Program-made: the position numbers and the translations under genes
Notes under the pieces: model-generated
The model's input: the letters and a program-made list of their open reading frames with translations, nothing else
Told to the model about the DNA's origin: nothing
Database searches by the model: none
Part shown: positions 4,956 through 25,027 of the stretch, one piece after another
How the letters are laid out: each line of letters begins with the position of its first letter
Numbering within the stretch: the stretch's first letter is position 1
Assembly (NCBI GenBank): GCA_965200225.1
Contig: CBDATM010000001.1
Coordinates: forward strand, 1,681,182 to 1,745,181
DNA length: 64,000 nucleotides
Origin: Gammaproteobacteria bacterium
Lineage (GTDB): Bacteria; Pseudomonadota; Gammaproteobacteria; Steroidobacterales; Foliamicaceae
Direction: 5' to 3'

Positions 4956-5849
4956 GTGTTCAATAGTCCCTTTCGCGGAGAGGCGCTGGCCAGCCGTGGC
5001 CAGCGGCAACAGATCGACCATCTCCTTCGCACGACGGCGCCGCACGAGCGGCCGCTGCTTGCCAGCGTTGGCGCCTTGCTGCTCGCTTTCCTGGCCTGGG
5101 CGCTGTTTGGCAGCGTCGTGCGCGACGTAACGATAGACGGCGTTCTCGTTGCGCCGGGCGCGCGGCATGACCTCGTCTCCCTGGTGCCGGGCCATCTGCT
5201 GGAGTTCCTGGTCGAGCCGGGCGAACAAGTTGTGGAAGGACAGCTGATCGCGCGACAGAGCGCGCCGGAGCTCGACCGTGAGATCGCAGCGGCGCGCAAC
5301 AGGTTTGAACTGCTTGAAGCGGGAGAGCCGTCGGGCGCTGGCGAAGCCTCGGATAGCAGCGTGGCCGCGGCCCGGATGGCGCTTCGACAACTTGAGGCGC
5401 AGCGTACGGTCCGGGAACAGATCGTCAGCCACGTCGGAGGCGAGGTTACGGCCCTGCGGGTGGCCCCTGGAACGTATCTGGTTCCCGGCACCGCAGTCTT
5501 GCAGGTCCGGGTCCCGGATGCGCAGCCGCCGCGGGCCGTAGTGCAGGCCGCCCCCCATGTCGCGCAGCGCATTCGCGGGGGGATGCAGGCGTCGGTTGAG
5601 GTGGCGGTGCCCGGCGGCACGGTGCGTCAGGTGGCGGGGGAAGTTGCAGCGGTTAGCGCAGCTCCGCTGCCGGACTGGCTGGCGGCGCTGGGGCCGGCGG
5701 CTGCCGAGTCATCCGAGTCATCCGGGCGGGTTGACATCATCCTCCATGACGCGGCCGATCTCGCGGCGATCGACGGAGCGCCGGCGCGGGTACGCATCGT
5801 GCTCGGCCGCGTGCGGCCGGCTGTTCTCCTCTACGCCCAGTCGTCCTGA
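4956..5849 (+). CDS. HlyD-family secretion adaptor of the NHLM bacteriocin export system
   Basis: 297 aa with a GTG start. It begins FNSPFRGEALASRGQRQQIDHLL, followed by a single TM helix (LLASVGALLLAFLAWALFGSV) and a lipoyl-like hairpin. It lies immediately upstream of the C39-ABC gene, in the order typical of NHLM transport triads. Confidence 0.7.
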   Translation: MFNSPFRGEALASRGQRQQIDHLLRTTAPHERPLLASVGALLLAFLAWALFGSVVRDVTIDGVLVAPGARHDLVSLVPGHLLEFLVEPGEQVVEGQLIARQSAPELDREIAAARNRFELLEAGEPSGAGEASDSSVAAARMALRQLEAQRTVREQIVSHVGGEVTALRVAPGTYLVPGTAVLQVRVPDAQPPRAVVQAAPHVAQRIRGGMQASVEVAVPGGTVRQVAGEVAAVSAAPLPDWLAALGPAAAESSESSGRVDIILHDAADLAAIDGAPARVRIVLGRVRPAVLLYAQSS

Positions 5850-5863: not shown

Positions 5864-8062
5864 ATGCCGAAGACAAAGCGAGCGCGCCGCCCGATCAGGA
5901 ATCGGCAGCGCGTGACCACGCCGCTGCGGATGCAGACCCACGTCACCGAGTGCGCCGCAGCCTGCTTGGGCAGCGTGCTCGCCTATTTTGGGCGCTGGGT
6001 GTCGCTGTCGGAACTGCGCGAGCGGTGCGAGGTCAGCCGCGACGGCTCATCGGCGGCGGGCGTCTTGCGCGCCGCCCGGCACTACGGTCTGGAGTGCAAG
6101 GGTTGGCACGGCGGGGTGCGGCAACTGAAGAAGCTGGAACTGCCGCTCATCCTGTTCTGGGAATTCCGGCACTTTCTGATCCTTGAGGGCTTCGATAAAC
6201 GCCGCTTCTTCCTGAACGATCCGGCAGTCGGCCGCCGCACCGTGTCTGCGGAAGAGTTCGCCAAGGGATTCACGGGCGTTGCATTGCGCTTCCAGCGCGG
6301 ACCGAAGTTCGAGCGCGGCGGCGTTCGGCCGAGTCTGTTGCAGCACCTGCCGCAATGGCTGCATGGCGCCTGGGGCACGCTGGCCTACGCGGCTGCCTGC
6401 GGGCTGTTGCTGGCCGCGCTGGCGCTGGTGACGCCTGCCGCGCTAGCGCTGTTCGTGGATCAGGTGCTGGGAGAGGGCGAGCCGTGGGGCGCGATGCTGG
6501 CTACGGCGATGGCAGGCGGCGCCGCGCTGTCCTATCTGCTCGGCTGGATGAAGCAGCGCTGGCTGCGGCGCCTGTCCATCGGAATGGCCGTGCTGGCTGG
6601 AAACCATTTCATGACCCGACTGCTGCGCCTGCCGATCTCCTACTTCGACCACAGGCTCGTGGGTGACCTTACAACCCGCATCGTGTCCGTCGACCGCATT
6701 GCCCGCGGGTTGGCGGAGCACTTCTCCGGCGTCCTGATCGAGATGGCGATGAGCGCAATTTTCCTGGCCGTCATACTGGCGTATTCGCCGTACCTGGGGC
6801 TTTTTGTCCTCGCGCTGGCGGTGGTGAACGGGGTTCTCGTGCGTGTGATCGCGCGCCTTCGGACCGACCGGAACTACGTGCTGACCACGGAGCAGGGGGC
6901 ATTCATCGGCGTCGGCATGGCTATGCTCCATCAGGGCGACAACTTGCGCATGACCGTCGCCGACGATGGCTTCTTCGACCGCTGGAGCGGACACCAGGCG
7001 CGCGAGCTGGTTGCCCGGCACCGGTTCCTGGAGGCTGGCCACATCATCACGGCTCTGCCGCAACTCTTCCTGGCGCTGGGGAATGCCGCCGTGCTGCTGT
7101 TCGGGGCGGCCCAGGTCATGAGCGGTCAGTTGACCTTGGGGGCGCTGGCAGGGCTCTACCTCGTTGCGGGCATGTTCCTGGGCCCGATCGGACGGTTCGT
7201 CGAACTCGCCGACGAGCGGCAGGCTCTGGAGGCCGATCTGATGCGTCTCGAGGACATCACGTCTACCGCGCAGGATCCTGTGGCTGCGGACCGGCAGGAT
7301 GTGGCGGGGCGCATCGCGACCATCGACAACCGGCTGCGGCTGGTCGGCCGGTTGGAGTTGCGAGGCGTAACCTTCGGTTACAACCGGAACCGGCCTCCGC
7401 TGCTCGACAACTTCAGTCTGATCATCGAACCGGGCCAGCGGATCGCGGTGGTGGGTCCCAGCGGGTCCGGGAAATCGACCCTCGCCAAGCTGGTCGCGGG
7501 CATCCATCAGCCATGGTCCGGCGAGATTCTGCTGGACGGTCATCCGCGCGACAAGATTCCCGAAGAAGTGCTGGCGCGCTCGGTGTCCATGGTTGACCAG
7601 CGGATCATTCTGTTTTCGTCCACGGTGCGCGACAACATTACCCTGTGGAATCCCGCCGTTCCCGAACACGATCTGGTGGCCGCCGCCCGCGACGCCTGCA
7701 TCCACAAAGAAATTCTCGCCAGACCACTGGGCTACAAGACGCCCGTCAGCGAGGGCGGGGTCAACTTCAGCGGTGGTCAGCGGCAGCGGCTGGAGATTGC
7801 CCGCGCTTTGGTGAGCAATCCGACCTTGCTGGTTCTGGACGAGGCCACCAGCGCATTGGACGCCTCCACCGAGGCGGATGTCGAAGACGCGCTGCGCCGC
7901 CGCGGTGCCAGTTGCCTTATCGTCGCGCATCGGCTGAGCACGATTCGGGACTGCGACGAAATCATCTTTCTCGCCGAGGGCAAGACGGTGCAGCGCGGCG
8001 GCCATGAGGAACTGATGGCAGACAGCGAAGGACCGTACTATCAGCTTGTCCGCTCCGGTTGA
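5864..8062 (+). CDS. ABC transporter with N-terminal C39 (double-glycine) peptidase domain, NHLM system peptidase/ATP-binding protein
   Basis: 732 aa. The C39 catalytic-Cys context is QTHVTECAAACLGSVLAYFGRWVSL. It has a six-TM ABC membrane domain, Walker A GPSGSGKST, signature FSGGQRQRLEIARAL and Walker B LLVLDEATSALD. Confidence 0.9.
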   Translation: MPKTKRARRPIRNRQRVTTPLRMQTHVTECAAACLGSVLAYFGRWVSLSELRERCEVSRDGSSAAGVLRAARHYGLECKGWHGGVRQLKKLELPLILFWEFRHFLILEGFDKRRFFLNDPAVGRRTVSAEEFAKGFTGVALRFQRGPKFERGGVRPSLLQHLPQWLHGAWGTLAYAAACGLLLAALALVTPAALALFVDQVLGEGEPWGAMLATAMAGGAALSYLLGWMKQRWLRRLSIGMAVLAGNHFMTRLLRLPISYFDHRLVGDLTTRIVSVDRIARGLAEHFSGVLIEMAMSAIFLAVILAYSPYLGLFVLALAVVNGVLVRVIARLRTDRNYVLTTEQGAFIGVGMAMLHQGDNLRMTVADDGFFDRWSGHQARELVARHRFLEAGHIITALPQLFLALGNAAVLLFGAAQVMSGQLTLGALAGLYLVAGMFLGPIGRFVELADERQALEADLMRLEDITSTAQDPVAADRQDVAGRIATIDNRLRLVGRLELRGVTFGYNRNRPPLLDNFSLIIEPGQRIAVVGPSGSGKSTLAKLVAGIHQPWSGEILLDGHPRDKIPEEVLARSVSMVDQRIILFSSTVRDNITLWNPAVPEHDLVAAARDACIHKEILARPLGYKTPVSEGGVNFSGGQRQRLEIARALVSNPTLLVLDEATSALDASTEADVEDALRRRGASCLIVAHRLSTIRDCDEIIFLAEGKTVQRGGHEELMADSEGPYYQLVRSG

Positions 8063-11060
8063 ACTCATGGGATGCGCCGCCAGCCAGCTTGCCGATCTGG
8101 TCGCAGATTGGGGAACTGCCGTGTCCTGTGCCGGGAATCAGCCAGTTGACCTCGGCGACCCGCAGTGGGTCTGGTTTGTTGAGAAAGGCGCCGTGGACCT
8201 GTTCCTGATCGAGCGTCAGGACGGGGTAGAGCGGGCGGCGCGCCAACACGCGCTGCGCGCCAGACCCGGGCAGCTCCTGCCAGGCGTTGCGCCGCAGGCA
8301 GGTCCCACCACCCTTGGCCTGATCGCCAAGGGCAGCCCGGAAACAGTATTGTGGCGCCTGCCTGCCGACCGCCTCACCGATATCGAACCGGCGACGGTGG
8401 CGGCGCGGACCGACGAGTGGCTGACAGGCATCTCCGAAATGCTGGTCCGGGACGTGCAGTACGCGCCGCGGGCGGACGCGCTCGTCGATCCGGGACAGTT
8501 CGTCGAGCGTAGCGAGGGCACGGTGTCGGCGCGGCGCGGAGTTGCCTGGGTGTCGGCGCCGCCAGCGGGCTCGGGACTGTTTCTGGGCGTAACGGACCCG
8601 GTCGCTGAGATGCCTAGGGCCAGACCCGGCGCACAGCGTCCGTCCGCCGCCGGAGACCCGCAGGAGAGCGCGCCGCAGTCCGAAGTCGCCGGAAGATTCG
8701 TGGCGCTCACGCCGTCCAGTTGGCTGACCCTGACTGGTCCGGTACGGCTATCAGCCTGCTCCACCGAGACCCTGGCGAAAGAAGGCCGCCTGCTGGCCGC
8801 CTTGGCGGATTTCTACGCCGTGGCATTGTCCGCGGAACGGCTCAATCGAATGCTGGCGGTAGTCGATCAGACAAATGAGGAACGAGCCAGAGTCAGCAGC
8901 CGGCGGACTGCGGAGGATAGTGCCCGCCGTCGGCTGCTCGGCGTGGGCGGGCGCTCGCAGGAATGGGATGCGACCGCGGGGGACTCCGTCCTCCTGGAAG
9001 CGCTGCGGATCGTCGGGCGTCACGCAGGCATTTCTTTCAGGATGTCCGAAGCAACGGAACTCACCAACCCCGTCGCTCTCCTGCGTTATATTCTGGATGT
9101 GTCCGGGGTGCGCGGCCGCCGGGTGCGACTGGTTGCCGAAGACCGCTGGTGGCTTGGCGACAGCGGTGCCATGCTGGCTTTCCGGGCCGGTGACGAGCAG
9201 CCCGTTGCGTTGCTGCCGGGCCCGCTGGGACGCTATCGGGAAGTTGACCCCGTAACGGGGCGTTGCAGGCCGATCTCAGCCGCGCGCGCGGCTGAGATCG
9301 GAGCCAGCGCGTGGGCGTTCCACCGCCCCCTGCCTGCAGGCCGCGTCGGCCTGTGGAAGCTGCTCCGGTTTGCAGGGCAAGGAATGCTCGGCGATGTTGC
9401 GCGATTCGTAGCCCCCGGGGTGCTCGGCGGACTCCTGATGGTGTTGCCGGCCGTGATGCTGGGCTTCGTAGTTGCCGACGTCATCCCTGCCGGCTCCAAC
9501 GGCCTGCTGCACACGGCGGCCGCCATGGTGGCGGCAGGCGCGATCATCGGGGGGTTGCTCCATCTTCTCCAGCAGATGGCGCTGATGCGCCTGGAAGGAC
9601 GAGCCACGTCGCGCGTTGAAGCCGCATTCTGGGACCGTCTGCTACGGTTGCCCGGGCGTCTGCTGCGCCGCTATCCGACTGGAGACTTGGCCATGCGCGG
9701 CATGACCTTCCAGCAACTCCGCGACGTTCTGCAAAACGTGGTGGGCAATGCGTTTCTGTCGGTGGTCTTTCTGCTGCCGGCCTATCTCGTCATCTATCTC
9801 TACGATGCCGCGCTCGGCGGCGTATCCCTGGCCTTCGGCATACTGTCGCTGTCGGTTACGCTGATCTTCGGGCTGCGGCAGTTCGCCCCTCAGGCTCGCG
9901 TGTTGCGGGCCACTCACCGAGTGGCTGCCGGGCTGTTCCAGCTTTTGAACGGCGTATCCAAGCTGCGCGCCGAGGGCGCGGAAGGTTCGGCGTTCGCGGC
10001 CTGGGCGCAAGATTACCGAAAGCAGAAAGAGGCCGAACTGGAGGTCGGCGCCTTGGAGGCGCACCTGCACGGGCTCGGAGCGGCCCTGCCTCTGCTGGCT
10101 GGAGCGGTCCTGTTGACGGAGGCGACGTTGACGGGCGCCGGAACGGTAACGATCTCCGACTTCCTGGTTGTTTTCGCAGCGTTCCTGGGGTTTCAGGCGG
10201 CGGCGACCCGCTTGAATGCATCGTTCACCTCGCTGGCCGCCCTCCGCCCGGCCTTGGAGCGAGTGCGGCCGTTCCTTGAGGAATCCGCCGCCGAAGACGC
10301 CGAGGGCGAACCCGTAGAACGCCTGGGCGGGGAGATTCTGTTCGACCACATCAGTTTCAGCTACGACCCGGACGGTCCGCTGGTTCTCGACGACGTTTCG
10401 ATGCGCGTCCAGCCTGGCGAGTTCGTCGCCATCGCGGGCGAATCGGGCGCAGGCAAGAGCACCCTTCTGCGGCTCGCGCTGGGCCTGGACCAGCCATCTG
10501 CCGGAGTGGTGTACTACGATGGCCGCGATCTGAGACAACTCAACGCGAGGCAGCTACGTCGGCAGCTCGGCGTTGTGCCGCAGGACGTGCGGCTCCAGCC
10601 GGTGGATATCCTGGACAATATTGCCGGAGCGCAGGAAGAGGAAGGCGCGAAGGATGTCTGGCAGAGCGCTTGGCAGGCGGCGCGGGTGGCGAACGTGGAC
10701 CGTACGATAGCAACGATGCCGATGGGGATGCTGACGGCGGTCGGGATCAGCGGCGCCGAGGCCTCGGGGGGCGAGAGCCAGCGCATCACCATCGCTGGCG
10801 CGCTGGCGCGCAACCCCCGCATCCTGCTGCTGGACGAAGCGACCAACTGGCTCGACAACGATAGCCAAGCCGCGGTAATGCGCAACCTTGCCGACCTGTC
10901 CGCCACGCGGATCATCATCGCCCACCGCCTCTCCACCTTGCGTCTGGTGGATCGCATCTACGTGATGCAGGCGGGGAAGGTGGTTCAGGCCGGAACATTC
11001 AAGGAACTGGAGGCAACCGAGGGAGCTTTCCGCGACCTTGTGCGCCGCCAGATGGCCTGA
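8046..11060 (+). CDS. Second NHLM-system ABC transporter (no peptidase; N-terminal cNMP-binding-like domain)
   Basis: 1004 aa from TTG 8046. An alternative ATG at 8067 lies 5 nt after the upstream stop. The long N-terminal extension is followed by a TM domain, Walker A GESGAGKST, signature ASGGESQRITIAGAL and Walker B ILLLDEATNWLD. Confidence 0.85.
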   Translation: MSAPVELMGCAASQLADLVADWGTAVSCAGNQPVDLGDPQWVWFVEKGAVDLFLIERQDGVERAARQHALRARPGQLLPGVAPQAGPTTLGLIAKGSPETVLWRLPADRLTDIEPATVAARTDEWLTGISEMLVRDVQYAPRADALVDPGQFVERSEGTVSARRGVAWVSAPPAGSGLFLGVTDPVAEMPRARPGAQRPSAAGDPQESAPQSEVAGRFVALTPSSWLTLTGPVRLSACSTETLAKEGRLLAALADFYAVALSAERLNRMLAVVDQTNEERARVSSRRTAEDSARRRLLGVGGRSQEWDATAGDSVLLEALRIVGRHAGISFRMSEATELTNPVALLRYILDVSGVRGRRVRLVAEDRWWLGDSGAMLAFRAGDEQPVALLPGPLGRYREVDPVTGRCRPISAARAAEIGASAWAFHRPLPAGRVGLWKLLRFAGQGMLGDVARFVAPGVLGGLLMVLPAVMLGFVVADVIPAGSNGLLHTAAAMVAAGAIIGGLLHLLQQMALMRLEGRATSRVEAAFWDRLLRLPGRLLRRYPTGDLAMRGMTFQQLRDVLQNVVGNAFLSVVFLLPAYLVIYLYDAALGGVSLAFGILSLSVTLIFGLRQFAPQARVLRATHRVAAGLFQLLNGVSKLRAEGAEGSAFAAWAQDYRKQKEAELEVGALEAHLHGLGAALPLLAGAVLLTEATLTGAGTVTISDFLVVFAAFLGFQAAATRLNASFTSLAALRPALERVRPFLEESAAEDAEGEPVERLGGEILFDHISFSYDPDGPLVLDDVSMRVQPGEFVAIAGESGAGKSTLLRLALGLDQPSAGVVYYDGRDLRQLNARQLRRQLGVVPQDVRLQPVDILDNIAGAQEEEGAKDVWQSAWQAARVANVDRTIATMPMGMLTAVGISGAEASGGESQRITIAGALARNPRILLLDEATNWLDNDSQAAVMRNLADLSATRIIIAHRLSTLRLVDRIYVMQAGKVVQAGTFKELEATEGAFRDLVRRQMA

Positions 11061-11094
11061 TCGGCCGCTGGCGGGGATCAGGAAGAATCAGGCC

Positions 11095-12240
11095 GTGGAC
11101 CAATGTGAGCGGTTGGACCTTGCCGAAGAGCGTCTTGTCCGCGAGGCAAATTCGCTGGGCGCGCTGCTCGACGGTCTGCGACAGCGCTGGTCTCCCGCAC
11201 TCATCAATGACACCGAATGGGCGCGGCTGATGGAGCGGGCGCGGGCGTTTCCCGCGACCATGGCCTCCTGCCTGTTCGGGTTCGAGTTGCCGCTCCATGA
11301 CGCTCGGCCGCGAGCGGACCTGGGCGTCGGTCTCAACAGCGGGAGTCGTTCGGCTGCATCGTTCTGCGGCGCGGCGCGGCCGGAAGACGAAGACGCGGAA
11401 CCTTGCAAGAGGCGTCTGGCCGCCCTGCTGGCCACGGCGCAACAGCCGGATTCCGCTCTCTGTCGAGTCGGCGGGCGGCGACCCCATTTCATGCTGGAGT
11501 ACGACATCGGGTCGGCTCAAGGCGCCGCCCCGGACCCGGGCATCTTCTTCTACCCGATGCAGGATCGCGTGACTGCGGGCGGTCCGGCAGGCGAGTGGCC
11601 ACAGGACCTCGGGGCGGCGGCCCGCTCCGTCGCTGCGGCTGTCGGCAGACCCATGGACGACCGTGCCGGTCGCCGGATTGAGCAGCTTTGCCTGACGATG
11701 CCGCCCGGCGCATCCATTGGCTCGGTGGGGGCCTTTCCGGTGCGCGGCGCCGACGTACGGTTGGCCGTGATGGGATTCCGGCGCGCAGACAAACTTGCCG
11801 CCTTCCTCGACCGCGCCGGATGGACAGGGCAGCGCGCGGTGGTTGCCGACACGGCATCATCAATGGCGCTGCTTGGCGCCCACGGACGCGTGGGGCTCAA
11901 CATTGATGTGCTTGCCGACGGCTTGGGGGCGCGGCTGGGACTGAGCTTTTACGTCGATCCGTGGCCTTGGGCCCGCCGCCAGTGGCGCGGGCTGCTTGAT
12001 TACGCGCGCCACACCGGCTTGGCGGTTCCGGCGAAACTGGACGCGCTCGGCGATGCACTGCCACCGATGGACATGCTCTTGGGTCGCAGCGGCTCCTTTC
12101 AACTCCTGCACGGCATCCACCACGTCAAATTCGTGGTGGATGCCGAACGCATCACCGAGATCAAGGCCTATGACCTCCTGATGCTGCGTCCTTTTCTTGA
12201 CCGGGCGGCGCAGCCGCCCGGTCAAGACCCCGTGCCCTAA
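11095..12240 (+). CDS. Hypothetical protein of the RiPP locus (no family recognised)
   Basis: The ORF is open from 11038. GTG 11095 is preceded by AGGAAG with a 9-nt spacer. No motif I can assign with confidence. Its stop codon overlaps the stop of the convergent precursor A (CTAA at 12237-12240). Confidence 0.5.
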   Translation: MDQCERLDLAEERLVREANSLGALLDGLRQRWSPALINDTEWARLMERARAFPATMASCLFGFELPLHDARPRADLGVGLNSGSRSAASFCGAARPEDEDAEPCKRRLAALLATAQQPDSALCRVGGRRPHFMLEYDIGSAQGAAPDPGIFFYPMQDRVTAGGPAGEWPQDLGAAARSVAAAVGRPMDDRAGRRIEQLCLTMPPGASIGSVGAFPVRGADVRLAVMGFRRADKLAAFLDRAGWTGQRAVVADTASSMALLGAHGRVGLNIDVLADGLGARLGLSFYVDPWPWARRQWRGLLDYARHTGLAVPAKLDALGDALPPMDMLLGRSGSFQLLHGIHHVKFVVDAERITEIKAYDLLMLRPFLDRAAQPPGQDPVP

Positions 12241-12509
12241 GAGCAGCCGCTAAAATAGCTGCCGGAGACGCTCTCGAGTTGTTCCTCGTCGAGGTCGGGC
12301 AGCGGCGGCAGGGCGAGATGGGCGTTTTGCATGTCGCCCTCATGCACATGCACATTCATGCCTTCGGGCACGTCAACGCCGAATTCGCGGCTGATCACGG
12401 CCTTGGGGTCGGCCACCAACTCCGCGCGGAATTCAACGCTCTCGATTGACTTCTCGACGATCTGCTTGTAGAGATTCTCCGTCGTGGTCATCATGCTTTC
12501 GATGCTCAT
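12237..12509 (-). CDS. NHLP-leader RiPP precursor A (core YFSGCS)
   Basis: 90 aa. The NHLP-type leader is SVEFRAELVADPKAVISREFGVDVPEGMNVHVHEGDMQNAHLALPPLPDLDEEQLESVSG, followed by S-YFSGCS-stop. The RBS is AAGGAG, 8 nt before the ATG. The gene is divergent from the cyclodehydratase. Confidence 0.9.
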   Translation of the reverse strand: MSIESMMTTTENLYKQIVEKSIESVEFRAELVADPKAVISREFGVDVPEGMNVHVHEGDMQNAHLALPPLPDLDEEQLESVSGSYFSGCS

Positions 12510-12796
12510 AATTTTTCTCCTTTATTCAGTATGTCAAATAAACAAGGCTCGGATTAACAAGCGCATGTCGCTTGCCAACATGCCTCGCGCCAAACCTCTG
12601 CCGCCTATCATACTCCATTCCACTCCTCCCCCGATGCTTGGCAATATCAACAAGGATCGCGCGGCAACGTGCTGAACGCAGGCGAACGCAGCGGACACTA
12701 TGCCGGGCATGTAATTAGGTGAGATAATCGGGTTGCGAGGAACCAAGGATTGGGGCCAGCAAGCGTCGCGCGCCAGACGGCGTGGAGGAGGAACCG

Positions 12797-15118
12797 ATGC
12801 AAAGACAGGTGTCAGAGGCGGGCTGGGGCGCAGGGCGGGGGATTCTGAAGCGGACCACCGCGGCCGACCGCGGGCTTGTGGAGACGCCGTCGCTGACCCC
12901 GCACCTTGATTTCTTTGCGGTTGAAGCAGGGCGGACGCTGCTGGTTTCCGAGAGCTTCAACACGTTGATCCGCGGGCAGGTCCACCAGGACCTGCTGCCG
13001 CTGCTCGACGGCCGCTCCCGGCAGGCCGTGGCGGCCGCGCTCGCCGGCCGCCACGCGGCCGCGGACGTGGCGTCGGCGCTGGCGTCGCTGGCGTCGCGCG
13101 GCTACGTTGTCTCGGGCGACTACGCCATGGACCGGGGCCGGGCGGCGTTCTGGTCGGCGCTGGGCGCCTCGCCGCGCTGGGCGGAGCAGCGCCTGCGGAA
13201 TGCGCGGGTGGCCGCGCTCGGCGACGAAGGGCGCCTTGCCCGGCGCCTCGGGGACCTGGGGGCGCCGGCCGCCGCCGACGGCCGGACTTTGCGGGTCACG
13301 GTCTGCGGCGACTATCTGGACAGCTGTCACGCCGGCCTCAACCGGCGCCGGATCGCGTCCGGCGAGCCGTGGATGCTGCTGGCGCCGGAAGGCGGCCGTC
13401 CGCTGTTTGGGCCGGTTTTCCAGCCAGCCGGGCAAGGACCGTGCTGGGCCTGCCTCGCCCATCGCCTGCGGGGGCATCGCGAAGTTCACGAGTTCGCGCG
13501 CCGGATTGCCGGCAGCGGCTGTGTTCCGGCGCCGAAGGCGTCCGAGCCGGTCGTGGTGGAAGCGGTGTACGATCTGGCCGCCGCCGAGATCGCCAAGTGG
13601 CTGGTCTTCGACTCGCTGGCGCCGCTGCACGAGAACGTCATCTCGCTGGACGTGCTCGGCTTGCAAAGCGCGCGGCATTTTCTGGCGCGCCGCCCGCAGT
13701 GCCGCGTTTGCGGGGACGCGGCGCTGTATCGCCCCGACCGTCCGCCAGCGCCCGTGCGGCTGCGGCCAAGTCCCAAGCGCGCGCGCAGCAGCGGCGGCGC
13801 GCGCTCGGTTCCTCCTGAAGCGACCCTGGCGCGTTACCGGCATCTGATCAGCCCGGTAACCGGCGTGGTTTCCTGGCTTGAGCGGGCGACCGGCGAGACC
13901 GATCCGTGGTCGCATGTGTACTACGCCCGGGGCACCTTGGCGCCGCAGGGCGTCAGCGACCTGGGAATGCTGCGCCGCCGCCTGGGGATGACCAGCGCAG
14001 GCAAGGGCAGCACCGCGAGGCAATCCCGGGCGAGCGCCCTGGGCGAGGCGGTCGAGCGCTGCAGCGGAGTCTTTCATGGCGACGAAATCCGCTGCCGCCG
14101 CAGTTACTCGGACTTTGTGGCGGCGGGCGGGTCCGAAGCCATTCACCCCAACGAAGTGCAGTTGTTCAGCGATCGGCAGTTCGACGAACGCGAACGCCGC
14201 AACGCCGCCGCCCGGCAGCACAACCTGATTCCGGAGCGCCTCGACCCCGACGCGAAAATCGACTGGTCGCCGGTCTGGTCGCTGACGCAGGAGCGCCACC
14301 GGTACCTGCCAACGTCGCTCTTGTACTACTTCGGAGCGCCGGCGAGCGCGTTCCAGTTTCGGGCTGATTCGAACGGTTGCGCGGCGGGCAACACCCTGGA
14401 AGAGGCGATTCTCCAGGGATTCTTCGAGCTGGCGGAACGCGACGCCTTCGCGATCTGGTGGTATAACCGGTTGCGCCTGCCCGGCGTGGACCTGGAGAGC
14501 TTCGCGGACGACTTCCTGTCGTCGGCAGCGGAATACTACCGCGGCCGCCGGCGCAGCCTCTGGGCGCTGGACGCGACCAGCGACCTCGGCATTCCGGTGT
14601 TCGTCGCCCTCTCCCGGCGCGCTGATCGCAAAACGGCCGGCCACGACGAGATCATGTACGGGATAGGGGCGCACGCCGAACCGCGCATCGCGATTCTGCG
14701 CGCCGTATGCGAACTGAATCAGATGATCTCCTTTTTCGACATCAGCGCCCCCAGGAGCGATGGCCGGTGGCGGCCCTGGGACCGGCCGGTCAAGCTGGCG
14801 GACAACCCGTGGCTGACGCCGGCTCCCGGCGTCGCCCTGCGCGGCCGCTGGGATCACGCCGTTGCCGCCGAAGATGACGCGCGGGAAGACATTGAGCGCT
14901 GCCGGGCGCTGGTCGAAGCCAAGGGGCTGGAGTTGCTGGTCCTCGACCAGACCCGGCCCGACATCGGCATGCCGGTGGCGCGGGTCATTGTGCCCGGCCT
15001 CCGTCACTTCTGGCGGCGGTTAGCGCCGGGCCGCCTGTACGATGTGCCGGTCAGGACGGGGCAGCGCCCCGCCCCGAGCTCGGAGGGCGATCTCAACCCC
15101 CTTCCGGTCCTGGTCTGA
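12797..15118 (+). CDS. Fused TOMM cyclodehydratase, copy 1 (E1/ThiF-like SagC-type N-terminus + YcaO/SagD domain)
   Basis: The ORF is open from 12782. ATG 12797 follows GGAGGAGGAA. The N-terminal half shows GPCWACLAHRLRGHREVHEF and RRPQCRVCGD. The YcaO half shows SAGKGSTARQSRASALGEAVERCSG and NGCAAGNTLEEAILQGFFELAERDAFAIWWYN. Confidence 0.9.
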   Translation: MQRQVSEAGWGAGRGILKRTTAADRGLVETPSLTPHLDFFAVEAGRTLLVSESFNTLIRGQVHQDLLPLLDGRSRQAVAAALAGRHAAADVASALASLASRGYVVSGDYAMDRGRAAFWSALGASPRWAEQRLRNARVAALGDEGRLARRLGDLGAPAAADGRTLRVTVCGDYLDSCHAGLNRRRIASGEPWMLLAPEGGRPLFGPVFQPAGQGPCWACLAHRLRGHREVHEFARRIAGSGCVPAPKASEPVVVEAVYDLAAAEIAKWLVFDSLAPLHENVISLDVLGLQSARHFLARRPQCRVCGDAALYRPDRPPAPVRLRPSPKRARSSGGARSVPPEATLARYRHLISPVTGVVSWLERATGETDPWSHVYYARGTLAPQGVSDLGMLRRRLGMTSAGKGSTARQSRASALGEAVERCSGVFHGDEIRCRRSYSDFVAAGGSEAIHPNEVQLFSDRQFDERERRNAAARQHNLIPERLDPDAKIDWSPVWSLTQERHRYLPTSLLYYFGAPASAFQFRADSNGCAAGNTLEEAILQGFFELAERDAFAIWWYNRLRLPGVDLESFADDFLSSAAEYYRGRRRSLWALDATSDLGIPVFVALSRRADRKTAGHDEIMYGIGAHAEPRIAILRAVCELNQMISFFDISAPRSDGRWRPWDRPVKLADNPWLTPAPGVALRGRWDHAVAAEDDAREDIERCRALVEAKGLELLVLDQTRPDIGMPVARVIVPGLRHFWRRLAPGRLYDVPVRTGQRPAPSSEGDLNPLPVLV

Positions 15119-15132
15119 AGGACGTTCTGCCG

Positions 15133-16515
15133 ATGCCCCTCAGCGACCTGCTTCACGAGCCGTCAATCCATGTTCGCACATGGGGCCGATCGGCGATCAG
15201 CCATTCTCGCTACAGCTCCTCGTTCGTAGGCTCGATCCGGAATAACCCGGTGCGGCTGGGTCCGTACGGCCGCGATTTCGAGGCGGCCCACAACCTGCTT
15301 GTGGCGGGCGCACCGCTTGCCGAACTCCACGCTGCCGTCGTCGAGGGGGGCAGCGTGGAGCGCGCCGCCGAGTACCTGGTTTGGCTGGAGCGGTTCAATC
15401 GGTTCGGGGGCATTGAGTTCCCGCTGGTCGACGAGACGGGCGAACGCGCCGTCATCCTCCCGCAGCAGGACACGTTCGTGCCTACCATGGCGCCGGACGC
15501 TCCGGCCGCCAGTACCTCGCTCGAACGCTTTGCCTTTTTGCGGCGCGGGAACGACGCGTGGCTGCTGGAGTCGCCCCTGGTTGGCGCGCAAGTTCAGCTT
15601 GTCGACCTCGCCGCGCTTGATAGCGATGTCGTCCGTCGCGCGCTTAACGGGATGGGCTTTCTCGATGCGGCCCGGCCGGACAGCGATGCGCGTCGTATTG
15701 CGCTCGCCCAGTGGGAGTTCCACGATCTGCTGTTCCACACCCGTGAGCGGCGCGGGTGGAATCGTGAACCGGCTGGCGCCGCGTTCCCGTTCATCGACCA
15801 GATCGAGCCGCTGCCTGCAGTGCGGCCGGCCTGGCCCGGCAAGCGCATCGCCCTGCCTCGCGCTCCGGATGCCGTCGCGGGGGAGCCCTTCGCGGCGGTG
15901 CTCGCACGGCGTTGCTCCGAGCGGGCGTACGATGCAGCCCACCCGATCACGCTGGCCGATCTCGGCGCGCTGCTCGACCGCGCCGCGCGCATCCGCTCGT
16001 CCATGGCGCATCCGGTACGCGACATCAAGGGTCGAACCGCCGAATTCGAAATCACTTTTCGTCCCTATCCTACGGGCGGCGCGAGCCACGAGCTGGAGAT
16101 CTATCCGATTGTGGACTTTTGCGTCGGACTCAAATCCGGTTGCTATCACTACGATGCGTCCGCCCACGAGTTGGTGCGGATCTCGGAGCGTACCCGGGAG
16201 ATCGACAAACTTCTGCGGTTTGCGCGGAGCGCAACGGCTGATCTGGCCCGGCCGCAGATTCTGCTGGGCGTAACGGCGCGCTTCGCTCGCGTCATGTGGA
16301 AGTACCGGGCGTTCTGTTACGCCATGATCCTGCGCGACACCGGGGCACTCTACCAGACGCTGTATCTCGCAGCCACCGAACTCGGCTTGTCGCCTTGCGC
16401 CATCGGCAGCGGCAACAGCCTCCTGTTCTCGCAAGTCACCGGTCTCGACCCGCTGATCGAGGGCAATGTCGGCGAGTTCATTCTCGGCGGCCGACCTGCA
16501 GCGTCCGCATCCTGA
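15133..16515 (+). CDS. SagB-type FMN-dependent azoline dehydrogenase, copy 1
   Basis: 460 aa. The nitroreductase-fold C-terminal half shows RRCSERAYD...FRPYPTGGASHELEIYP...LYLAATELGLSPCAIGSG. It starts 14 nt after the cyclodehydratase stop. Confidence 0.9.
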   Translation: MPLSDLLHEPSIHVRTWGRSAISHSRYSSSFVGSIRNNPVRLGPYGRDFEAAHNLLVAGAPLAELHAAVVEGGSVERAAEYLVWLERFNRFGGIEFPLVDETGERAVILPQQDTFVPTMAPDAPAASTSLERFAFLRRGNDAWLLESPLVGAQVQLVDLAALDSDVVRRALNGMGFLDAARPDSDARRIALAQWEFHDLLFHTRERRGWNREPAGAAFPFIDQIEPLPAVRPAWPGKRIALPRAPDAVAGEPFAAVLARRCSERAYDAAHPITLADLGALLDRAARIRSSMAHPVRDIKGRTAEFEITFRPYPTGGASHELEIYPIVDFCVGLKSGCYHYDASAHELVRISERTREIDKLLRFARSATADLARPQILLGVTARFARVMWKYRAFCYAMILRDTGALYQTLYLAATELGLSPCAIGSGNSLLFSQVTGLDPLIEGNVGEFILGGRPAASAS

Positions 16516-16604
16516 CACGCGGAACTGCCCGCAGAGCCGCAAGGATTCCAGGTTGCGGGCATTTCTACCTTGCGTTGACACTTCCCCCCGCAACCCGTAC
16601 AAAA

Positions 16605-16641
16605 ATCCGGCGGCCAACGCAAACGCTGCGGGCCGCCGGAT
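16605..16641. terminator. GC-rich hairpin, bidirectional terminator-like (copy 1 of a duplicated element)
   Basis: Perfect 11-bp stem ATCCGGCGGCC (16605-16615) / GGCCGCCGGAT (16631-16641). An A5 run lies on the left and TGATTT on the right. Confidence 0.6.
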
Positions 16642-16666
16642 TGATTTGGGAGTTGAAATAGGCGGA

Positions 16667-16713
16667 TTAGAACGCCGGCCGCCAAGTTGCCCGGAAGTAG
16701 TAGAAGCCGCCAT
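16667..16713 (-). pseudogene. 47-bp relic of the 3' end of the TonB-dependent receptor gene
   Basis: Identical to 21335-21381 (stop codon plus the last 15 codons of the receptor). Homology stops abruptly at 16713/16714. Confidence 0.85.
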
Positions 16714-16875: not shown

Positions 16876-16901
16876 GATGAGAAACGCCCTGATTCTGCGA
16901 T

Positions 16902-17177
16902 CTAGCAGGAGCCGCAATGAATATAGCCGCCGGAGACGCTCTCGAGTTGTTCCTCGTCGAGGTCGGGCAGCGGCGGCAGGGCGAGATGGGCGTTTTGCAT
17001 GTCGCCCTCATGCACATGCACATTCATGCCTTCGGGCACGTCAACGCCGAATTCGCGGCTGATCACGGCCTTGGGGTCGGCCACCAACTCCGCGCGGAAT
17101 TCAACGCTCTCGATTGACTTCTCGACGATCTGCTTGTAGAGATTCTCCGTCGTGGTCATCATGCTTTCGATGCTCAT
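16902..17177 (-). CDS. NHLP-leader RiPP precursor B (core YIHCGSC)
   Basis: 91 aa. The leader is identical to precursor A up to LESVSG, followed by G-YIHCGSC-stop. Confidence 0.9.
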   Translation of the reverse strand: MSIESMMTTTENLYKQIVEKSIESVEFRAELVADPKAVISREFGVDVPEGMNVHVHEGDMQNAHLALPPLPDLDEEQLESVSGGYIHCGSC

Positions 17178-17464
17178 AATTTTTCTCCTTTATTCAGTAT
17201 GTCAAATAAACAAGGCTCGGATTAACAAGCGCATGTCGCTTGCCAACATGCCTCGCGCCAAACCTCTGCCGCCTATCATACTCCATTCCACTCCTCCCCC
17301 GATGCTTGGCAATATCAACAAGGATCGCGCGGCAACGTGCTGAACGCAGGCGAACGCAGCGGACACTATGCCGGGCATGTAATTAGGTGAGATAATCGGG
17401 TTGCGAGGAACCAAGGATTGGGGCCAGCAAGCGTCGCGCGCCAGACGGCGTGGAGGAGGAACCG

Positions 17465-19786
17465 ATGCAAAGACAGGTGTCAGAGGCGGGCTGGGGCGCA
17501 GGGCGGGGGATTCTGAAGCGGACCACCGCGGCCGACCGCGGGCTTGTGGAGACGCCGTCGCTGACCCCGCACCTTGATTTCTTTGCGGTTGAAGCAGGGC
17601 GGACGCTGCTGGTTTCCGAGAGCTTCAACACGTTGATCCGCGGGCAGGTCCACCAGGACCTGCTGCCGCTGCTCGACGGCCGCTCCCGGCAGGCCGTGGC
17701 GGCCGCGCTCGCCGGCCGCCACGCGGCCGCGGACGTGGCGTCGGCGCTGGCGTCGCTGGCGTCGCGCGGCTACGTTGTCTCGGGCGACTACGCCATGGAC
17801 CGGGGCCGGGCGGCGTTCTGGTCGGCGCTGGGCGCCTCGCCGCGCTGGGCGGAACAGCGCCTGCGGAATGCGCGGGTGGCCGCGCTCGGCGACGAAGGGC
17901 GCCTTGCCCGGCGCCTCGGGGACCTGGGGGCGCCGGCCGCCGCCGACGGCCGGACTTTGCGGGTCACGGTCTGCGGCGACTATCTGGACAGCTGTCACGC
18001 CGGCCTCAACCGGCGCCGGATCGCGTCCGGCGAGCCGTGGATGCTGCTGGCGCCGGAAGGCGGCCGTCCGCTGTTTGGGCCGGTTTTCCAGCCAGCCGGG
18101 CAAGGACCGTGCTGGGCCTGCCTCGCCCATCGCCTGCGGGGGCATCGCGAAGTTCACGAGTTCGCGCGCCGGATTGCCGGCAGCGGCTGTGTTCCGGCGC
18201 CGAAGGCGTCCGAGCCGGTCGTGGTGGAAGCGGTGTACGATCTGGCCGCCGCCGAGATCGCCAAGTGGCTGGTCTTCGACTCGCTGGCGCCGCTGCACGA
18301 GAACGTCATCTCGCTGGACGTGCTCGGCTTGCAAAGCGCGCGGCATTTTCTGGCGCGCCGCCCGCAGTGCCGCGTTTGCGGGGACGCGGCGCTGTATCGC
18401 CCCGACCGTCCGCCGGCGCCCGTGCGGCTGCGGCCAAGTCCCAAGCGCGCGCGCAGCAGCGGCGGCGCGCGCTCGGTTCCTCCTGAAGCGACCCTGGCGC
18501 GTTACCGGCATCTGATCAGCCCGGTAACCGGCGTGGTTTCCTGGCTTGAGCGGGCGACCGGCGAGACCGATCCGTGGTCGCATGTGTACTACGCCCGGGG
18601 CACCTTGGCGCCGCAGGGCGTCAGCGACCTGGGAATGCTGCGCCGCCTCCTGGGGATGATCAGCGCAGGCAAGGGCAGCACCGCGAGGCAATCCCGGGCG
18701 AGCGCCCTGGGCGAGGCGGTCGAGCGCTGCAGCGGAGTCTTTCATGGCGACGAAATCCGCTGCCGCCGCAGTTACTCGGACTTTGTGGCGGCGGGCGGGT
18801 CCGAAGCCATTCACCCCAACGAAGTGCAGTTGTTCAGCGATCGGCAGTTCGACGAACGCGAACGCCGCAACGCCGCCGCCCGGCAGCACAACCTGATTCC
18901 GGAGCGCCTCGACCCCGACGCGAAAATCGACTGGTCGCCGGTCTGGTCGCTGACGCAGGAGCGCCACCGGTACCTGCCAACGTCGCTCTTGTACTACTAC
19001 ACAGCGTCAGAGAGCGCGTCTCATTTTCAGGCCGATCCCAACGGTTGCGCGGCGGGCAACACCCTGGAAGAGGCGATTCTCCAGGGATTCTTCGAGCTGG
19101 CGGAACGCGACGCCTTCGCGATCTGGTGGTATAACCGGTTGCGCCTGCCCGGCGTGGACCTGGAGAGCTTCGCGGACGACTTCCTGTCGTCGGCAGCGGA
19201 ATACTACCGCGGCCGCCGGCGCAGCCTCTGGGCGCTGGACGCGACCAGCGACCTCGGCATTCCGGTGTTCGTCGCCCTCTCCCGGCGCGCTGATCGCAAA
19301 ACGGCCGGCCACGACGAGATCATGTACGGGATAGGGGCGCACGCCGAACCGCGCATCGCGATTCTGCGCGCCGTATGCGAACTGAATCAGATGATCTCCT
19401 TTTTCGACATCAGCGCCCCCAGGAGCGATGGCCGGTGGCGGCCCTGGGACCGGCCGGTCAAGCTGGCGGACAACCCGTGGCTGACGCCGGCTCCCGGCGT
19501 CGCCCTGCGCGGCCGCTGGGATCACGCCGTTGCCGCCGAAGATGACGCGCGGGAAGACATTGAGCGCTGCCGGGCGCTGGTCGAAGCCAAGGGGCTGGAG
19601 TTGCTGGTCCTCGACCAGACCCGGCCCGACATCGGCATGCCGGTGGCGCGGGTCATTGTGCCCGGCCTCCGTCACTTCTGGCGGCGGTTAGCGCCGGGCC
19701 GCCTGTACGATGTGCCGGTCAGGACGGGGCAGCGCCCCGCCCCGAGCTCGGAGGGCGATCTCAACCCCCTTCCGGTCCTGGTCTGA
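17465..19786 (+). CDS. Fused TOMM cyclodehydratase, copy 2
   Basis: Offset by exactly 4,668 bp from copy 1. The protein is identical except RRRLGMT>RRLLGMI and the patch FGAPASAFQFRADS>YTASESASHFQADP. Confidence 0.9.
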   Translation: MQRQVSEAGWGAGRGILKRTTAADRGLVETPSLTPHLDFFAVEAGRTLLVSESFNTLIRGQVHQDLLPLLDGRSRQAVAAALAGRHAAADVASALASLASRGYVVSGDYAMDRGRAAFWSALGASPRWAEQRLRNARVAALGDEGRLARRLGDLGAPAAADGRTLRVTVCGDYLDSCHAGLNRRRIASGEPWMLLAPEGGRPLFGPVFQPAGQGPCWACLAHRLRGHREVHEFARRIAGSGCVPAPKASEPVVVEAVYDLAAAEIAKWLVFDSLAPLHENVISLDVLGLQSARHFLARRPQCRVCGDAALYRPDRPPAPVRLRPSPKRARSSGGARSVPPEATLARYRHLISPVTGVVSWLERATGETDPWSHVYYARGTLAPQGVSDLGMLRRLLGMISAGKGSTARQSRASALGEAVERCSGVFHGDEIRCRRSYSDFVAAGGSEAIHPNEVQLFSDRQFDERERRNAAARQHNLIPERLDPDAKIDWSPVWSLTQERHRYLPTSLLYYYTASESASHFQADPNGCAAGNTLEEAILQGFFELAERDAFAIWWYNRLRLPGVDLESFADDFLSSAAEYYRGRRRSLWALDATSDLGIPVFVALSRRADRKTAGHDEIMYGIGAHAEPRIAILRAVCELNQMISFFDISAPRSDGRWRPWDRPVKLADNPWLTPAPGVALRGRWDHAVAAEDDAREDIERCRALVEAKGLELLVLDQTRPDIGMPVARVIVPGLRHFWRRLAPGRLYDVPVRTGQRPAPSSEGDLNPLPVLV

Positions 19787-19800
19787 AGGACGTTCTGCCG

Positions 19801-21183
19801 ATGCCCCTCAGCGACCTGCTTCACGAGCCGTCAATCCATGTTCGCACATGGGGCCGATCGGCGATCAGCCATTCTCGCTACAGCTCCTCGTTCGTAGGCT
19901 CGATCCGGAATAACCCGGTGCGGCTGGGTCCGTACGGCCGCGATTTCGAGGCGGCCCACAACCTGCTTGTGGCGGGCGCACCGCTTGCCGAACTCCACGC
20001 TGCCGTCGTCGAGGGGGGCAGCGTGGAGCGCGCCGCCGAGTACCTGGTTTGGCTGGAGCGGTTCAATCGGTTCGGGGGCATTGAGTTCCCGCTGGTCGAC
20101 GAGACGGGCGAACGCGCCGTCATCCTCCCGCAGCAGGACACGTTCGTGCCTACCATGGCGCCGGACGCTCCGGCCGCCAGTACCTCGCTCGAACGCTTTG
20201 CCTTTTTGCGGCGCGGGAACGACGCGTGGCTGCTGGAGTCGCCCCTGGTTGGCGCGCAAGTTCAGCTTGTCGACCTCGCCGCGCTTGATAGCGATGTCGT
20301 CCGTCGCGCGCTTAACGGGATGGGCTTTCTCGATGCGGCCCGGCCGGACAGCGATGCGCGTCGTATTGCGCTCGCCCAGTGGGAGTTCCACGATCTGCTG
20401 TTCCACACCCGTGAGCGGCGCGGGTGGAATCGTGAACCGGCTGGCGCCGCGTTCCCGTTCATCGACCAGATCGAGCCGCTGCCTGCAGTGCGGCCGGCCT
20501 GGCCCGGCAAGCGCATCGCCCTGCCTCGCGCTCCGGATGCCGTCGCGGGGGAGCCCTTCGCGGCGGTGCTCGCACGGCGTTGCTCCGAGCGGGCGTACGA
20601 TGCAGCCCACCCGATCACGCTGGCCGATCTCGGCGCGCTGCTCGACCGCGCCGCGCGCATCCGCTCGTCCATGGCGCATCCGGTACGCGACATCAAGGGT
20701 CGAACCGCCGAATTCGAAATCACTTTTCGTCCCTATCCTACGGGCGGCGCGAGCCACGAGCTGGATATCTATCCGATTGTGGACTTTTGCGTCGGACTCA
20801 AATCCGGTTGCTATCACTACGATGCGTCCGCCCACGAGTTGGTGCGGATCTCGGAGCGTACCCGGGAGATCGACAAACTTCTGCGGTTTGCGCGGAGCGC
20901 AACGGCTGATCTGGCCCGGCCGCAGATTCTGCTGGGCGTAACGGCGCGCTTCGCTCGCGTCATGTGGAAGTACCGGGCGTTCTGTTACGCCATGATCCTG
21001 CGCGACACCGGGGCACTCTACCAGACGCTGTATCTCGCAGCCACCGAACTCGGCTTGTCGCCTTGCGCCATCGGCAGCGGCAACAGCCTCCTGTTCTCGC
21101 AATTCACCGGTCTCGACCCGCTGATCGAGGGCAATGTCGGCGAGTTCATTCTCGGCGGCCGACCTGCAGCGTCCGCATCCTGA
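19801..21183 (+). CDS. SagB-type dehydrogenase, copy 2
   Basis: Offset by 4,668 bp from copy 1. There are two substitutions (ELEIYP>ELDIYP, SQVTGL>SQFTGL). Confidence 0.9.
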   Translation: MPLSDLLHEPSIHVRTWGRSAISHSRYSSSFVGSIRNNPVRLGPYGRDFEAAHNLLVAGAPLAELHAAVVEGGSVERAAEYLVWLERFNRFGGIEFPLVDETGERAVILPQQDTFVPTMAPDAPAASTSLERFAFLRRGNDAWLLESPLVGAQVQLVDLAALDSDVVRRALNGMGFLDAARPDSDARRIALAQWEFHDLLFHTRERRGWNREPAGAAFPFIDQIEPLPAVRPAWPGKRIALPRAPDAVAGEPFAAVLARRCSERAYDAAHPITLADLGALLDRAARIRSSMAHPVRDIKGRTAEFEITFRPYPTGGASHELDIYPIVDFCVGLKSGCYHYDASAHELVRISERTREIDKLLRFARSATADLARPQILLGVTARFARVMWKYRAFCYAMILRDTGALYQTLYLAATELGLSPCAIGSGNSLLFSQFTGLDPLIEGNVGEFILGGRPAASAS

Positions 21184-21272
21184 CACGCGGAACTGCCCGC
21201 AGAGCCGCAAGGATTCCAGGTTGCGGGCATTTCTACCTTGCGTTGACACTTCCCCCCGCAACCCGTACAAAA

Positions 21273-25022: not shown

Positions 25023-25027
25023 AGGCG

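Follow-up and report, generated by a model that had tools for sequence, protein, structure and literature searches.

The gene at positions 11095-12240 of a 64,000-nucleotide stretch of gammaproteobacterial DNA (contig CBDATM010000001.1 of assembly GCA_965200225.1, positions 1,681,182 to 1,745,181; hereafter the window) encodes a protein which is predicted to adopt the barrel fold of the ABBA prenyltransferases (PTs). In our judgement, the chance is slightly better than even that this protein acts as a leader-dependent peptide prenyltransferase, that is, as a lipidating tailoring enzyme in a pathway of the thiazole/oxazole-modified microcin (TOMM)/proteusin type whose precursor peptides carry NHLP leaders. 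The point at issue is whether the protein prenylates a substrate itself or only helps the YcaO cyclodehydratase encoded in the same peptide cluster. The gene and its putative ribosome binding site are:

11095..12240, plus strand: gene for a 381-aa protein with predicted ABBA (PT-barrel) prenyltransferase fold, single copy (open reading frame, homologues, AlphaFold2, Foldseek)
11080..11085, plus strand: AGGAAG, Shine-Dalgarno-like site 9 nt 5′ of the GTG start (direct sequence reading)

The open frame containing the gene spans 11038-12240. Its GTG start at 11095, with which the N-termini of 66 homologues line up in an alignment, lies 35 nt past the stop codon (11058-11060) of the second ABC transporter gene of the cluster, and its TAA stop (12238-12240) shares 2 nt with the stop (12237-12239) of the convergent gene for the 90-aa precursor A on the minus strand. 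A sequence-only reading of the window had located the gene after the second ABC gene, with its stop overlapping that of precursor A, and had counted it once while a neighboring cassette is duplicated; all of this was confirmed, the copy numbers by tblastn and by comparison of the two precursor-YcaO-SagB cassettes (12241-16908 and 16909-21576, nucleotide identity ~99-100%). A search for a second, degraded copy as part of the duplicated cassette found none. The GC content by codon position is 0.75/0.53/0.76 in the gene, and ~67% around the locus. A chance open reading frame in GC-rich DNA was ruled out by the homologues and by a confident structure model, and the gene is therefore real.

For structure prediction, an AlphaFold2 model was built with an alignment of 67 sequences and its secondary structure was assigned by DSSP. 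The model has a mean predicted local distance difference test (pLDDT) score of 92.1 and a predicted template modeling score (pTM) of 0.90. It consists of five helix-helix-strand-strand (alpha-alpha-beta-beta) units which form a 10-strand antiparallel barrel wrapped in helices. The strand pairs comprise residues 61-66/75-81, 131-136/149-153, 207-213/221-228, 265-273/276-286, and (325-330)333-349/352-366, with two helices before each pair. The seven motifs that had been picked out by eye as strand-like all fall on predicted beta-strands of the model, namely FMLEYDI on strand 131-136, IFFYPM on 149-153, RLAVMGF on 221-228, RVGLNIDV on 265-273, RLGLSFYVDP on 276-286, HVKFVV on 333-349, and EIKAYDLL on 352-366. 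A Foldseek search against the PDB yielded ABBA/DMATS aromatic prenyltransferases for all of the top 50 matches, 25 of them at E≤1e-3, with 8db1 as the closest (E=1.8e-5). The matches include DMATS1, PriB, 5-/6-DMATS, IptA, EpzP, AmbP1, CloQ, FgaPT2, AnaPT, and CymD, and the top 50 also contain PagF, PirF, and DciF, prenyltransferases acting on peptides synthesized on ribosomes and modified post-translationally (RiPPs). Because all 50 best matches are ABBA/DMATS enzymes, the earlier, openly speculative resemblance to ABBA-type prenyltransferases is upheld at the level of the fold. The matches thus point to a single kind of protein and suggest a distant relationship of the predicted structure to the ABBA/DMATS enzymes; the model has the defining fold features of the ABBA/PT-barrel superfamily.

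The alignment of 67 family members contains 29 invariant columns. Among the invariant residues are E64, D75, E135, D137, R217, R222, D271, K314, H342, H343, K345, and K357, while Y136 and Y359 are near-invariant and R339 is conserved in 87% of the members. On the predicted strands conservation strictly alternates, so that one face is polar, small or aromatic and the other aliphatic. The conserved face carries G62 and E64, D75, G77 and S79, E135 and D137, and F151 and Y153 on the first strands, followed by R222, A224, T226 and F228, by G267, H269 and D271, and by G282, S284 and Y286 on the later strands, and by R339, H343 and K345 and K357, Y359 and F361 on the last ones. Polar residues alternate in the patterns E-x-D, R-x-A, H-x-K, and K-x-Y, with small residues between them. 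This suggests that E64, D75, E135, D137, R222, D271, R339, H343, K345, K357, and Y359 line the barrel. The small residues, the basic/Tyr cluster, and the aromatic residues would fit a barrel whose lumen is wide and binds a ligand. Strands with the H-x-K and K-x-Y patterns recall the diphosphate-binding K/R-x-Y strands of NphB and the DMATS enzymes, and the five acidic residues might bind Mg2+ or a cationic substrate.

At the level of sequence, the protein lies outside every described prenyltransferase family. It had been unassigned from the beginning, and HMMER searches against Pfam and PDB sequences bear this out. No match was obtained in Pfam or NCBIfam, and searches of the PDB sequences with the single protein sequence as well as with the 67-member profile returned nothing meaningful and no PT; the top matches were ATP synthase alpha subunits (E ~0.04), which were taken as chance. 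A scan of the 67 members against Pfam at E≤10 gave scattered weak matches, among them DUF7639 in four members (best E 0.0034). No Pfam domain was detected in ten remote family members either, and in the cluster look-ups the names of homologues never went beyond 'hypothetical protein'. These searches also covered a match to an unrelated housekeeping family, which was not found. Partner proteins of YcaO enzymes of the TfuA-like or Ocin-ThiF-like type were considered and rejected for lack of similarity and because their fold differs. Since no sequence link to PT families was detected, the PT assignment depends on the predicted structure only.

The family is large and keeps constant company. In a collection of 5.8 billion proteins, 88 clusters of homologues at 35-50% identity were found across many phyla, none of them with a Pfam domain, and an exhaustive profile search retrieved 2,184 clusters (50% identity) at E≤1e-3, of which 1,088 reached E≤1e-10. 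Members are encoded in 433 GTDB species representatives, with hosts from Nitrospirales, Gemmatimonadota, Binatia, Acidobacteriota, Acidimicrobiia, and Alpha- and Gammaproteobacteria. Many of the metagenome-assembled genomes are named after or sourced from sponges (Ca. Porisulfidus, Ca. Poriferihabitaceae, and a 'lac_sponge' assembly). For counting of neighboring genes, the best 80 loci from other species, all from metagenome-assembled genomes, were annotated by BLAST with the window proteins. Besides the family member itself (80/80), these loci contain an NHLP precursor (76/80), a fused E1-YcaO protein (72/80), ABC2 (58/80), ABC1 (50/80), and HlyD (46/80), while SagB is present in only six. 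The common gene order is YcaO, homologue of the window protein, precursor, HlyD, ABC, ABC, and 60 loci have the YcaO gene on the same strand as the homologue, with its end 0-141 nt (median ~10 nt) upstream. The neighboring precursors have the cores LCCCW, LCCCL, LCCCG(I/V/L), WCCCGN, RCCC, LSCCL, and LCCC, a set that marks the srp (sponge-derived RiPP proteusin) clusters, and the window protein is 35-50% identical over 90-100% of its length to the proteins encoded directly after YcaO in LCCCW, LCCCG, and LCCCL loci. Association with NHLM transport in other genomes, which had been named as a check, is thus strong, holds for NHLP precursors as well, and extends to remote relatives (E ~1e-40 to 1e-54), which still stand beside NHLM exporters and NHLP-type precursors. 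Absence of the gene from otherwise orthologous clusters, which had been named as a refutation, was not observed; the gene is near-constant in related clusters.

A neighbor-joining tree of 94 members groups them by core type and not by host phylum. Loci with an RCCC core always have two paralogues, which come from two distinct clades of the tree. This tracking of cores by clades and the paired paralogues are the behavior of tailoring enzymes. The window protein is placed in a small atypical branch with L010, L034, and L062; L010 has the cores GRWGFCG, GNMGCW, and VAGNCW, L034 has the core SCVSTF, and SagB is present in both loci. Among the remote relatives, L091 combines the core NCGGEGTCWW with YcaO and a SagB-like gene. 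In L090, the NHLP-like precursor (11188-11502, minus strand) has a 25-residue core, SGEGEEESWAEQAAAAVEEKLGSSE, which contains no Cys; no YcaO gene is found within 10 kb, and a flavin reductase and a 723-aa domainless protein are encoded nearby. Since this locus has neither Cys in the core nor YcaO within 10 kb, the family does not depend on YcaO chemistry.

Several neighbors in the related clusters are of lipid or isoprenoid type. Besides the ABC exporters, 44 of the 80 loci encode an MMPL transporter with a sterol-sensing domain (e.g. L047, 14400-16739). A fusion protein of ~800 aa, comprising a membrane fatty-acid-desaturase-type domain and a GlnE-like nucleotidyltransferase, occurs in 57 loci and is encoded just upstream of YcaO in most loci resembling the srp clusters of sponge bacteria (L047, 5112-7538; L039, 4746-7229; L066, 5310-7640). 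An S-adenosylmethionine-dependent methyltransferase is present in 37 loci, a VAO-type flavoprotein that weakly matches the cytokinin-dehydrogenase binding domain in 24, and a Trp halogenase in 12. In RCCC loci (eight of the 80), an MpaB/Lcp-type oxygenase is encoded between the two PT-fold paralogues (e.g. L039, 11162-12388); the MpaB/Lcp family includes enzymes that cleave isoprenoid double bonds.

The most telling neighbor is a protein of ~435 aa in 16 of the 80 loci (L005, 8695-10011; L066, 3890-5233; L077, 8554-9867; L089, 3842-5152; and 12 more), whose gene overlaps the start of the PT-fold gene in some of them. Its N-terminus is an NHLP-leader-like domain (TIGR03793, E 1e-9 to 1e-13), the protein has sub-threshold matches to squalene-hopene cyclase repeats, and its conservation is very high, with no less than 72% identity over the top 120 clusters out of more than 1,100, which come from different phyla. 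An AlphaFold2 model of medium confidence (pLDDT 64.5) gave class II terpene cyclases for the top 17 Foldseek matches (drimenol synthase, MstE, and small proteins like squalene-hopene cyclase). An invariant D-L-D-S-T-T motif is present in the family, which we take to resemble the DxDD/DxDTT acid motif of such cyclases. Every precursor that was found beside this protein has an aromatic residue as the last or next-to-last one of its core (LCCCW, LSCCW, LCCCGW, LCCCGF). A PT combined with a class II cyclase follows meroterpenoid logic, and this is circumstantial but independent support for handling of a prenyl diphosphate by the PT-fold protein. In addition, a partial protein of 449 aa (P0299; MGI9311175.1) appears to combine a C-terminal piece of the terpene-cyclase-like protein, with a faint match to SQHop_cyclase_C at residues 2-39, and a complete PT-fold domain at residues 90-446. 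Either a natural fusion or an artefact of a frameshift or of gene calling may account for it, and it is weak evidence.

The peptide cluster of the window consists of the gene described above and the following features:

4956..5849, plus strand: HlyD-type adaptor, NHLP bacteriocin export (partial TIGR03794 match)
5864..8062, plus strand: NHLM ABC1 with C39 peptidase, permease, and ATPase (TIGR03796, 847 bits)
8046..11060, plus strand: NHLM ABC2 with permease and ATPase (TIGR03797, 658 bits)
12237..12509, minus strand: NHLP-leader precursor A, 90 aa, predicted core YFSGCS after ...ESVSG-S (TIGR03793, E=1.3e-18)
12782..15118, plus strand: fused leader-binding (E1-like, TIGR03882)/YcaO (TIGR03604) cyclodehydratase, copy 1 (Pfam, NCBIfam)
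15133..16515, plus strand: SagB-type azoline dehydrogenase (TIGR03605), copy 1 (Pfam, NCBIfam)
16902..17177, minus strand: NHLP-leader precursor B, predicted core YIHCGSC after ...ESVSG-G (NCBIfam and translation)
17450..19786, plus strand: fused E1-like/YcaO cyclodehydratase, copy 2, 98.7% identical to copy 1
19801..21183, plus strand: SagB-type dehydrogenase, copy 2, 99.6% identical to copy 1

With precursor, E1-like/YcaO protein, SagB, and the NHLM export triad all matched, the window contains a complete TOMM cluster with NHLP leader. Precursors A and B have one common leader and differ only in the core. NHLM ABC1 is expected to remove the leader by cutting at G-G or G-S, and to export the product. 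If cleavage occurs there, both cores (YFSGCS and YIHCGSC) begin with Tyr, as the sequence-only reading had stated.

The analysis shows the gene with its predicted fold, the family, and the genes that accompany it; from these, we infer what is bound, which residue accepts the prenyl group, in which order the steps run, and that the leader is needed, as follows. A prenyl diphosphate would sit in the lumen of the barrel, with the diphosphate held by the basic/Tyr cluster R222, R339, H343, K345, K357, and Y359 and with Mg2+ probably bound to the invariant acidic residues E64, D75, E135, D137, and D271. Ionization would produce an allylic cation, which would alkylate a nucleophile in the very short core while the NHLP leader is still attached. 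A precedent for such dependence is MppC, an ABBA enzyme which geranylates a lanthipeptide only with its long Nif11-type leader attached (PMC12715784). Prenylation would take place in the cytoplasm, before or after azol(in)e formation by YcaO/SagB, and the C39-ABC exporter would then cut at G-G or G-S and secrete a prenylated peptide of 6-7 residues. In the window, the conserved Tyr in position 1 of the core would most likely be the acceptor, by O- or C-prenylation, and a single enzyme would act on precursors A and B with their identical leader.

A number of results weigh against this assignment. The likeness of the fold is moderate, with TM scores of 0.34-0.53, root-mean-square deviations of 7-10 Å, and identities of 8-15% in Foldseek, and the lumen residues were placed by strand alternation and not by superposition on diphosphate-binding sites. 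None of the 67 members matched a PT model of Pfam at E≤10. For a comparison of families, the sequence of NphB was checked to be identical to 1ZB6_A and used to build an alignment of the PF11468 (PTase_Orf2) family; hhalign of the family of the window protein against this NphB/CloQ alignment gave a probability of 0.8%, i.e. no detectable link. To our knowledge, the known ABBA subfamilies are mutually undetectable by sequence as well, so that the lack of a link is typical of the superfamily. We know of no ABBA enzymes with as many invariant acidic residues as the five found here, which is unusual for the superfamily. None of the lipid-type neighbor genes is present in the window cluster. Many relatives serve cores that have no aromatic acceptor (LCCCL, LCCCG, LCCC), and these are not explained by a simple model of aromatic prenylation. 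Finally, the tight coupling to YcaO that is usual in the relatives (gap of ~10 nt in 60 of the 80 loci) equally fits a subunit of the cyclodehydratase.

Such a subunit is the strongest competitor, although we regard it as rather unlikely. In that case the protein would have a PT-barrel fold without prenyl transfer and support the E1-YcaO cyclodehydratase as an accessory subunit or scaffold, possibly by binding the structured NHLP leader or the Cys-rich core and offering it to YcaO, or by gating which Cys are cyclized. Inactive PT-fold proteins occur in RiPP clusters, e.g. PatF of the cyanobactins, which favors this explanation, as do the cores without an aromatic nucleophile, the lack of sequence likeness to catalytic PT families, and the position directly after YcaO. 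It would also fit the behavior of SrpC, the YcaO protein of the srp clusters, which on its own showed little activity, failed to be purified, and left its peptide only partially modified in E. coli (PMC10286304). On the other hand, about 12 charged, His, and Tyr residues are invariant on the inferred barrel-lining face, which argues for ligand binding or catalysis and not for docking. In the window, the gene is uncoupled from YcaO and stands behind the ABC genes, in one copy compared to two of YcaO, and the remote relative L090 has a Cys-free precursor and no YcaO nearby. Tailoring also better explains why RCCC loci have two paralogues for one YcaO and why some neighbors resemble terpene cyclases and Lcp.

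A further alternative we consider distinctly improbable. Here the barrel would be catalytic without alkylating the peptide; it would prenylate a small molecule, or use a non-isoprenoid phosphorylated donor, and the product would act with the peptide or be joined to it later. Most of the solved ABBA enzymes in the Foldseek list take small aromatic molecules, the usual acceptors are missing from many cores, and the unusually acidic inferred lining could suit a cationic or metal-bound substrate. However, members of the family occur almost nowhere but next to NHLP precursors and their dedicated exporters, the clades follow the core sequence, and genes that could produce a small-molecule acceptor are missing from the window cluster.

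Immunity, one of the functions first considered for the gene, is very improbable. A product-binding protein that sequesters the mature peptide in the producer cell could be encoded once per cluster and adjoin the export genes, as observed in the window, and the barrel could hold a small hydrophobic peptide. These points are countered by a fold that is cytoplasmic and enzyme-like and has invariant polar residues on its inferred lining face, by the usual place inside the biosynthetic operon directly after YcaO, and by the duplication of paralogues that tracks core type; moreover, neither membrane nor secretion features appeared in the AlphaFold2 model.

Peptide prenylation, which we prefer for the window protein, can be extended to the whole family if other acceptors are allowed. 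If the family prenylates non-aromatic cores, the acceptor must be Cys or an azoline, a peptide terminus, or, in RCCC cores, Arg. We tentatively propose, and hold this wider claim to be doubtful, that the PT-barrel family provides the missing lipidating enzyme of srp clusters and prenylates very short, often non-aromatic thiazol(in)e peptides at Cys/azoline, Arg or a terminus, and that in the LCCCW clade a polyprenyl group is then cyclized by the class II terpene cyclase fused to an NHLP domain.

Some further observations were made on the cluster and its flanks. The first ~315 residues of ABC2 (8046-8990) form an extension outside the NHLM ABC2 model which has no Pfam match; homologues of ABC2 in other loci are similarly long (954-1005 aa). 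Eight of the ten amino acid differences between the YcaO copies are packed in residues 517-530 (14330-14371 in copy 1, 18998-19039 in copy 2), namely F517Y, G518T, P520S, A521E, F524S, Q525H, R527Q, and S530P. Besides this patch, notable differences between the cassettes are found only in the precursor cores, and the patch may be a specificity region that changed together with them. The spacer between SagB copy 1 and precursor B contains a third, 95%-identical copy (16714-16875) of the 162-nt junction of YcaO end and SagB start (14987-15148 and 19655-19816), which is probably a scar of the tandem duplication. The flanks are unrelated to the cluster; a periplasmic binding protein and a response-regulator phosphatase are encoded upstream. 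Directly downstream (21335-30330), the following genes are located:

21335-23899, minus strand: TonB-dependent receptor
24015-25742, minus strand: cation-efflux protein
26556-27563: ZnuA zinc-binding protein
27553-30330, plus strand: TonB-dependent receptor

Given these neighbors, a metal-related function of the small azole peptides is a possibility.

Clusters of the srp type are among the most widespread and most highly transcribed in sponge microbiomes, while their products and ecological role are still cryptic (PMC12426817; bioRxiv 10.1101/2023.06.09.544420). A near-universal gene with predicted PT fold, together with a lipid exporter, an oxygenase of isoprenoid-cleaving type, and terpene-cyclase-like neighbors, leads to the prediction that srp-type products are lipidated, which tells chemists which masses and extraction conditions to seek. 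For the window, two small thiazole/oxazole peptides are predicted to be prenylated by one enzyme. In the literature searched on srp clusters, proteusins, and peptide prenylation, a PT-like gene in NHLP/YcaO or srp clusters was not described (the JACS 2021 srp and ACS Chem Biol 2022 mpr papers were outside the coverage), nor was a RiPP with a cyclized terpene. What appears to be new is a large, sequence-distinct family of predicted PT-barrel proteins in a new RiPP setting. If the assignment is true, the family would be a third, sequence-distinct class of peptide prenyltransferases, possibly guided by the leader and accepting non-aromatic residues, which would be useful for biocatalytic lipidation of peptides. 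The wider proposal for srp clusters would add new acceptor chemistry for ABBA enzymes, and cyclization in the LCCCW clade would yield the first hybrids of ribosomal peptides and cyclic terpenoids.

The srp clusters, with the precursor SrpE (LCCCW core), the YcaO protein SrpC, and the brominase SrpI, are the closest known relatives by gene content. Of their enzymes, only SrpC, which forms three thiazolines, and the Trp-6 brominase SrpI have been characterized (e.g. PMC10286304). In the strict sense, an srp cluster has a Cys-triplet core of the LCCCW type and, in many members, a Trp brominase that depends on the leader. The loci of the relatives share NHLP precursors ending in LCCCW, LCCCG, LCCCL, or RCCC, the fused YcaO, NHLM exporters, and sometimes a Trp halogenase. 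Their order of YcaO, homologue, precursor, HlyD, ABC, ABC matches the lettering from srpC to srpH, which suggests that the family is probably the gene lettered after srpC. Compared to srp, the window is atypical: the cores have one or two Cys, no CCC, and no terminal Trp, SagB is present, halogenase, MMPL transporter, desaturase, and methyltransferase are absent, and the gene stands behind the ABC genes and not behind YcaO.

Meroterpenoid pathways, in which a PT is followed by a single-domain class II cyclase such as MstE, are paralleled in the 16 loci with the ~435-aa protein. MstE cyclizes a prenylated aromatic compound, whereas the cyclase-like partner, which is absent from the window, has an N-terminal NHLP-like domain foreign to known cyclases. 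The ABBA/DMATS enzymes (NphB 1ZB6, CloQ, EpzP, PriB, IptA, 5-DMATS, FgaPT2) have the same barrel architecture as predicted for the window protein, which differs from them in its larger number of invariant acidic residues, in belonging to a ribosomal-peptide instead of a small-molecule pathway, and in lacking any sequence likeness.

The nearest counterparts from RiPP pathways are the cyanobactin enzymes PagF, PirF, TruF, LynF, and DciF and the lanthipeptide enzyme MppC, which are likewise soluble PT-barrel proteins encoded within RiPP clusters. RiPP enzymes of the ABBA type lipidate Tyr, Trp, Ser/Thr, His, Arg, or the peptide termini. The cyanobactin enzymes act after leader removal and macrocyclization, in contrast to the window cluster, which has no macrocyclase or separate protease; PatA/PatG-like genes are not present in it, and the C39 domain of the exporter is its sole protease. 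MppC depends on a long leader of the Nif11 type, a class related to NHLP leaders (PMC12715784). From all of these enzymes the family of the window protein is set apart by its setting, with cores of 3-7 residues and with E1-YcaO proteins and NHLM exporters as partners.

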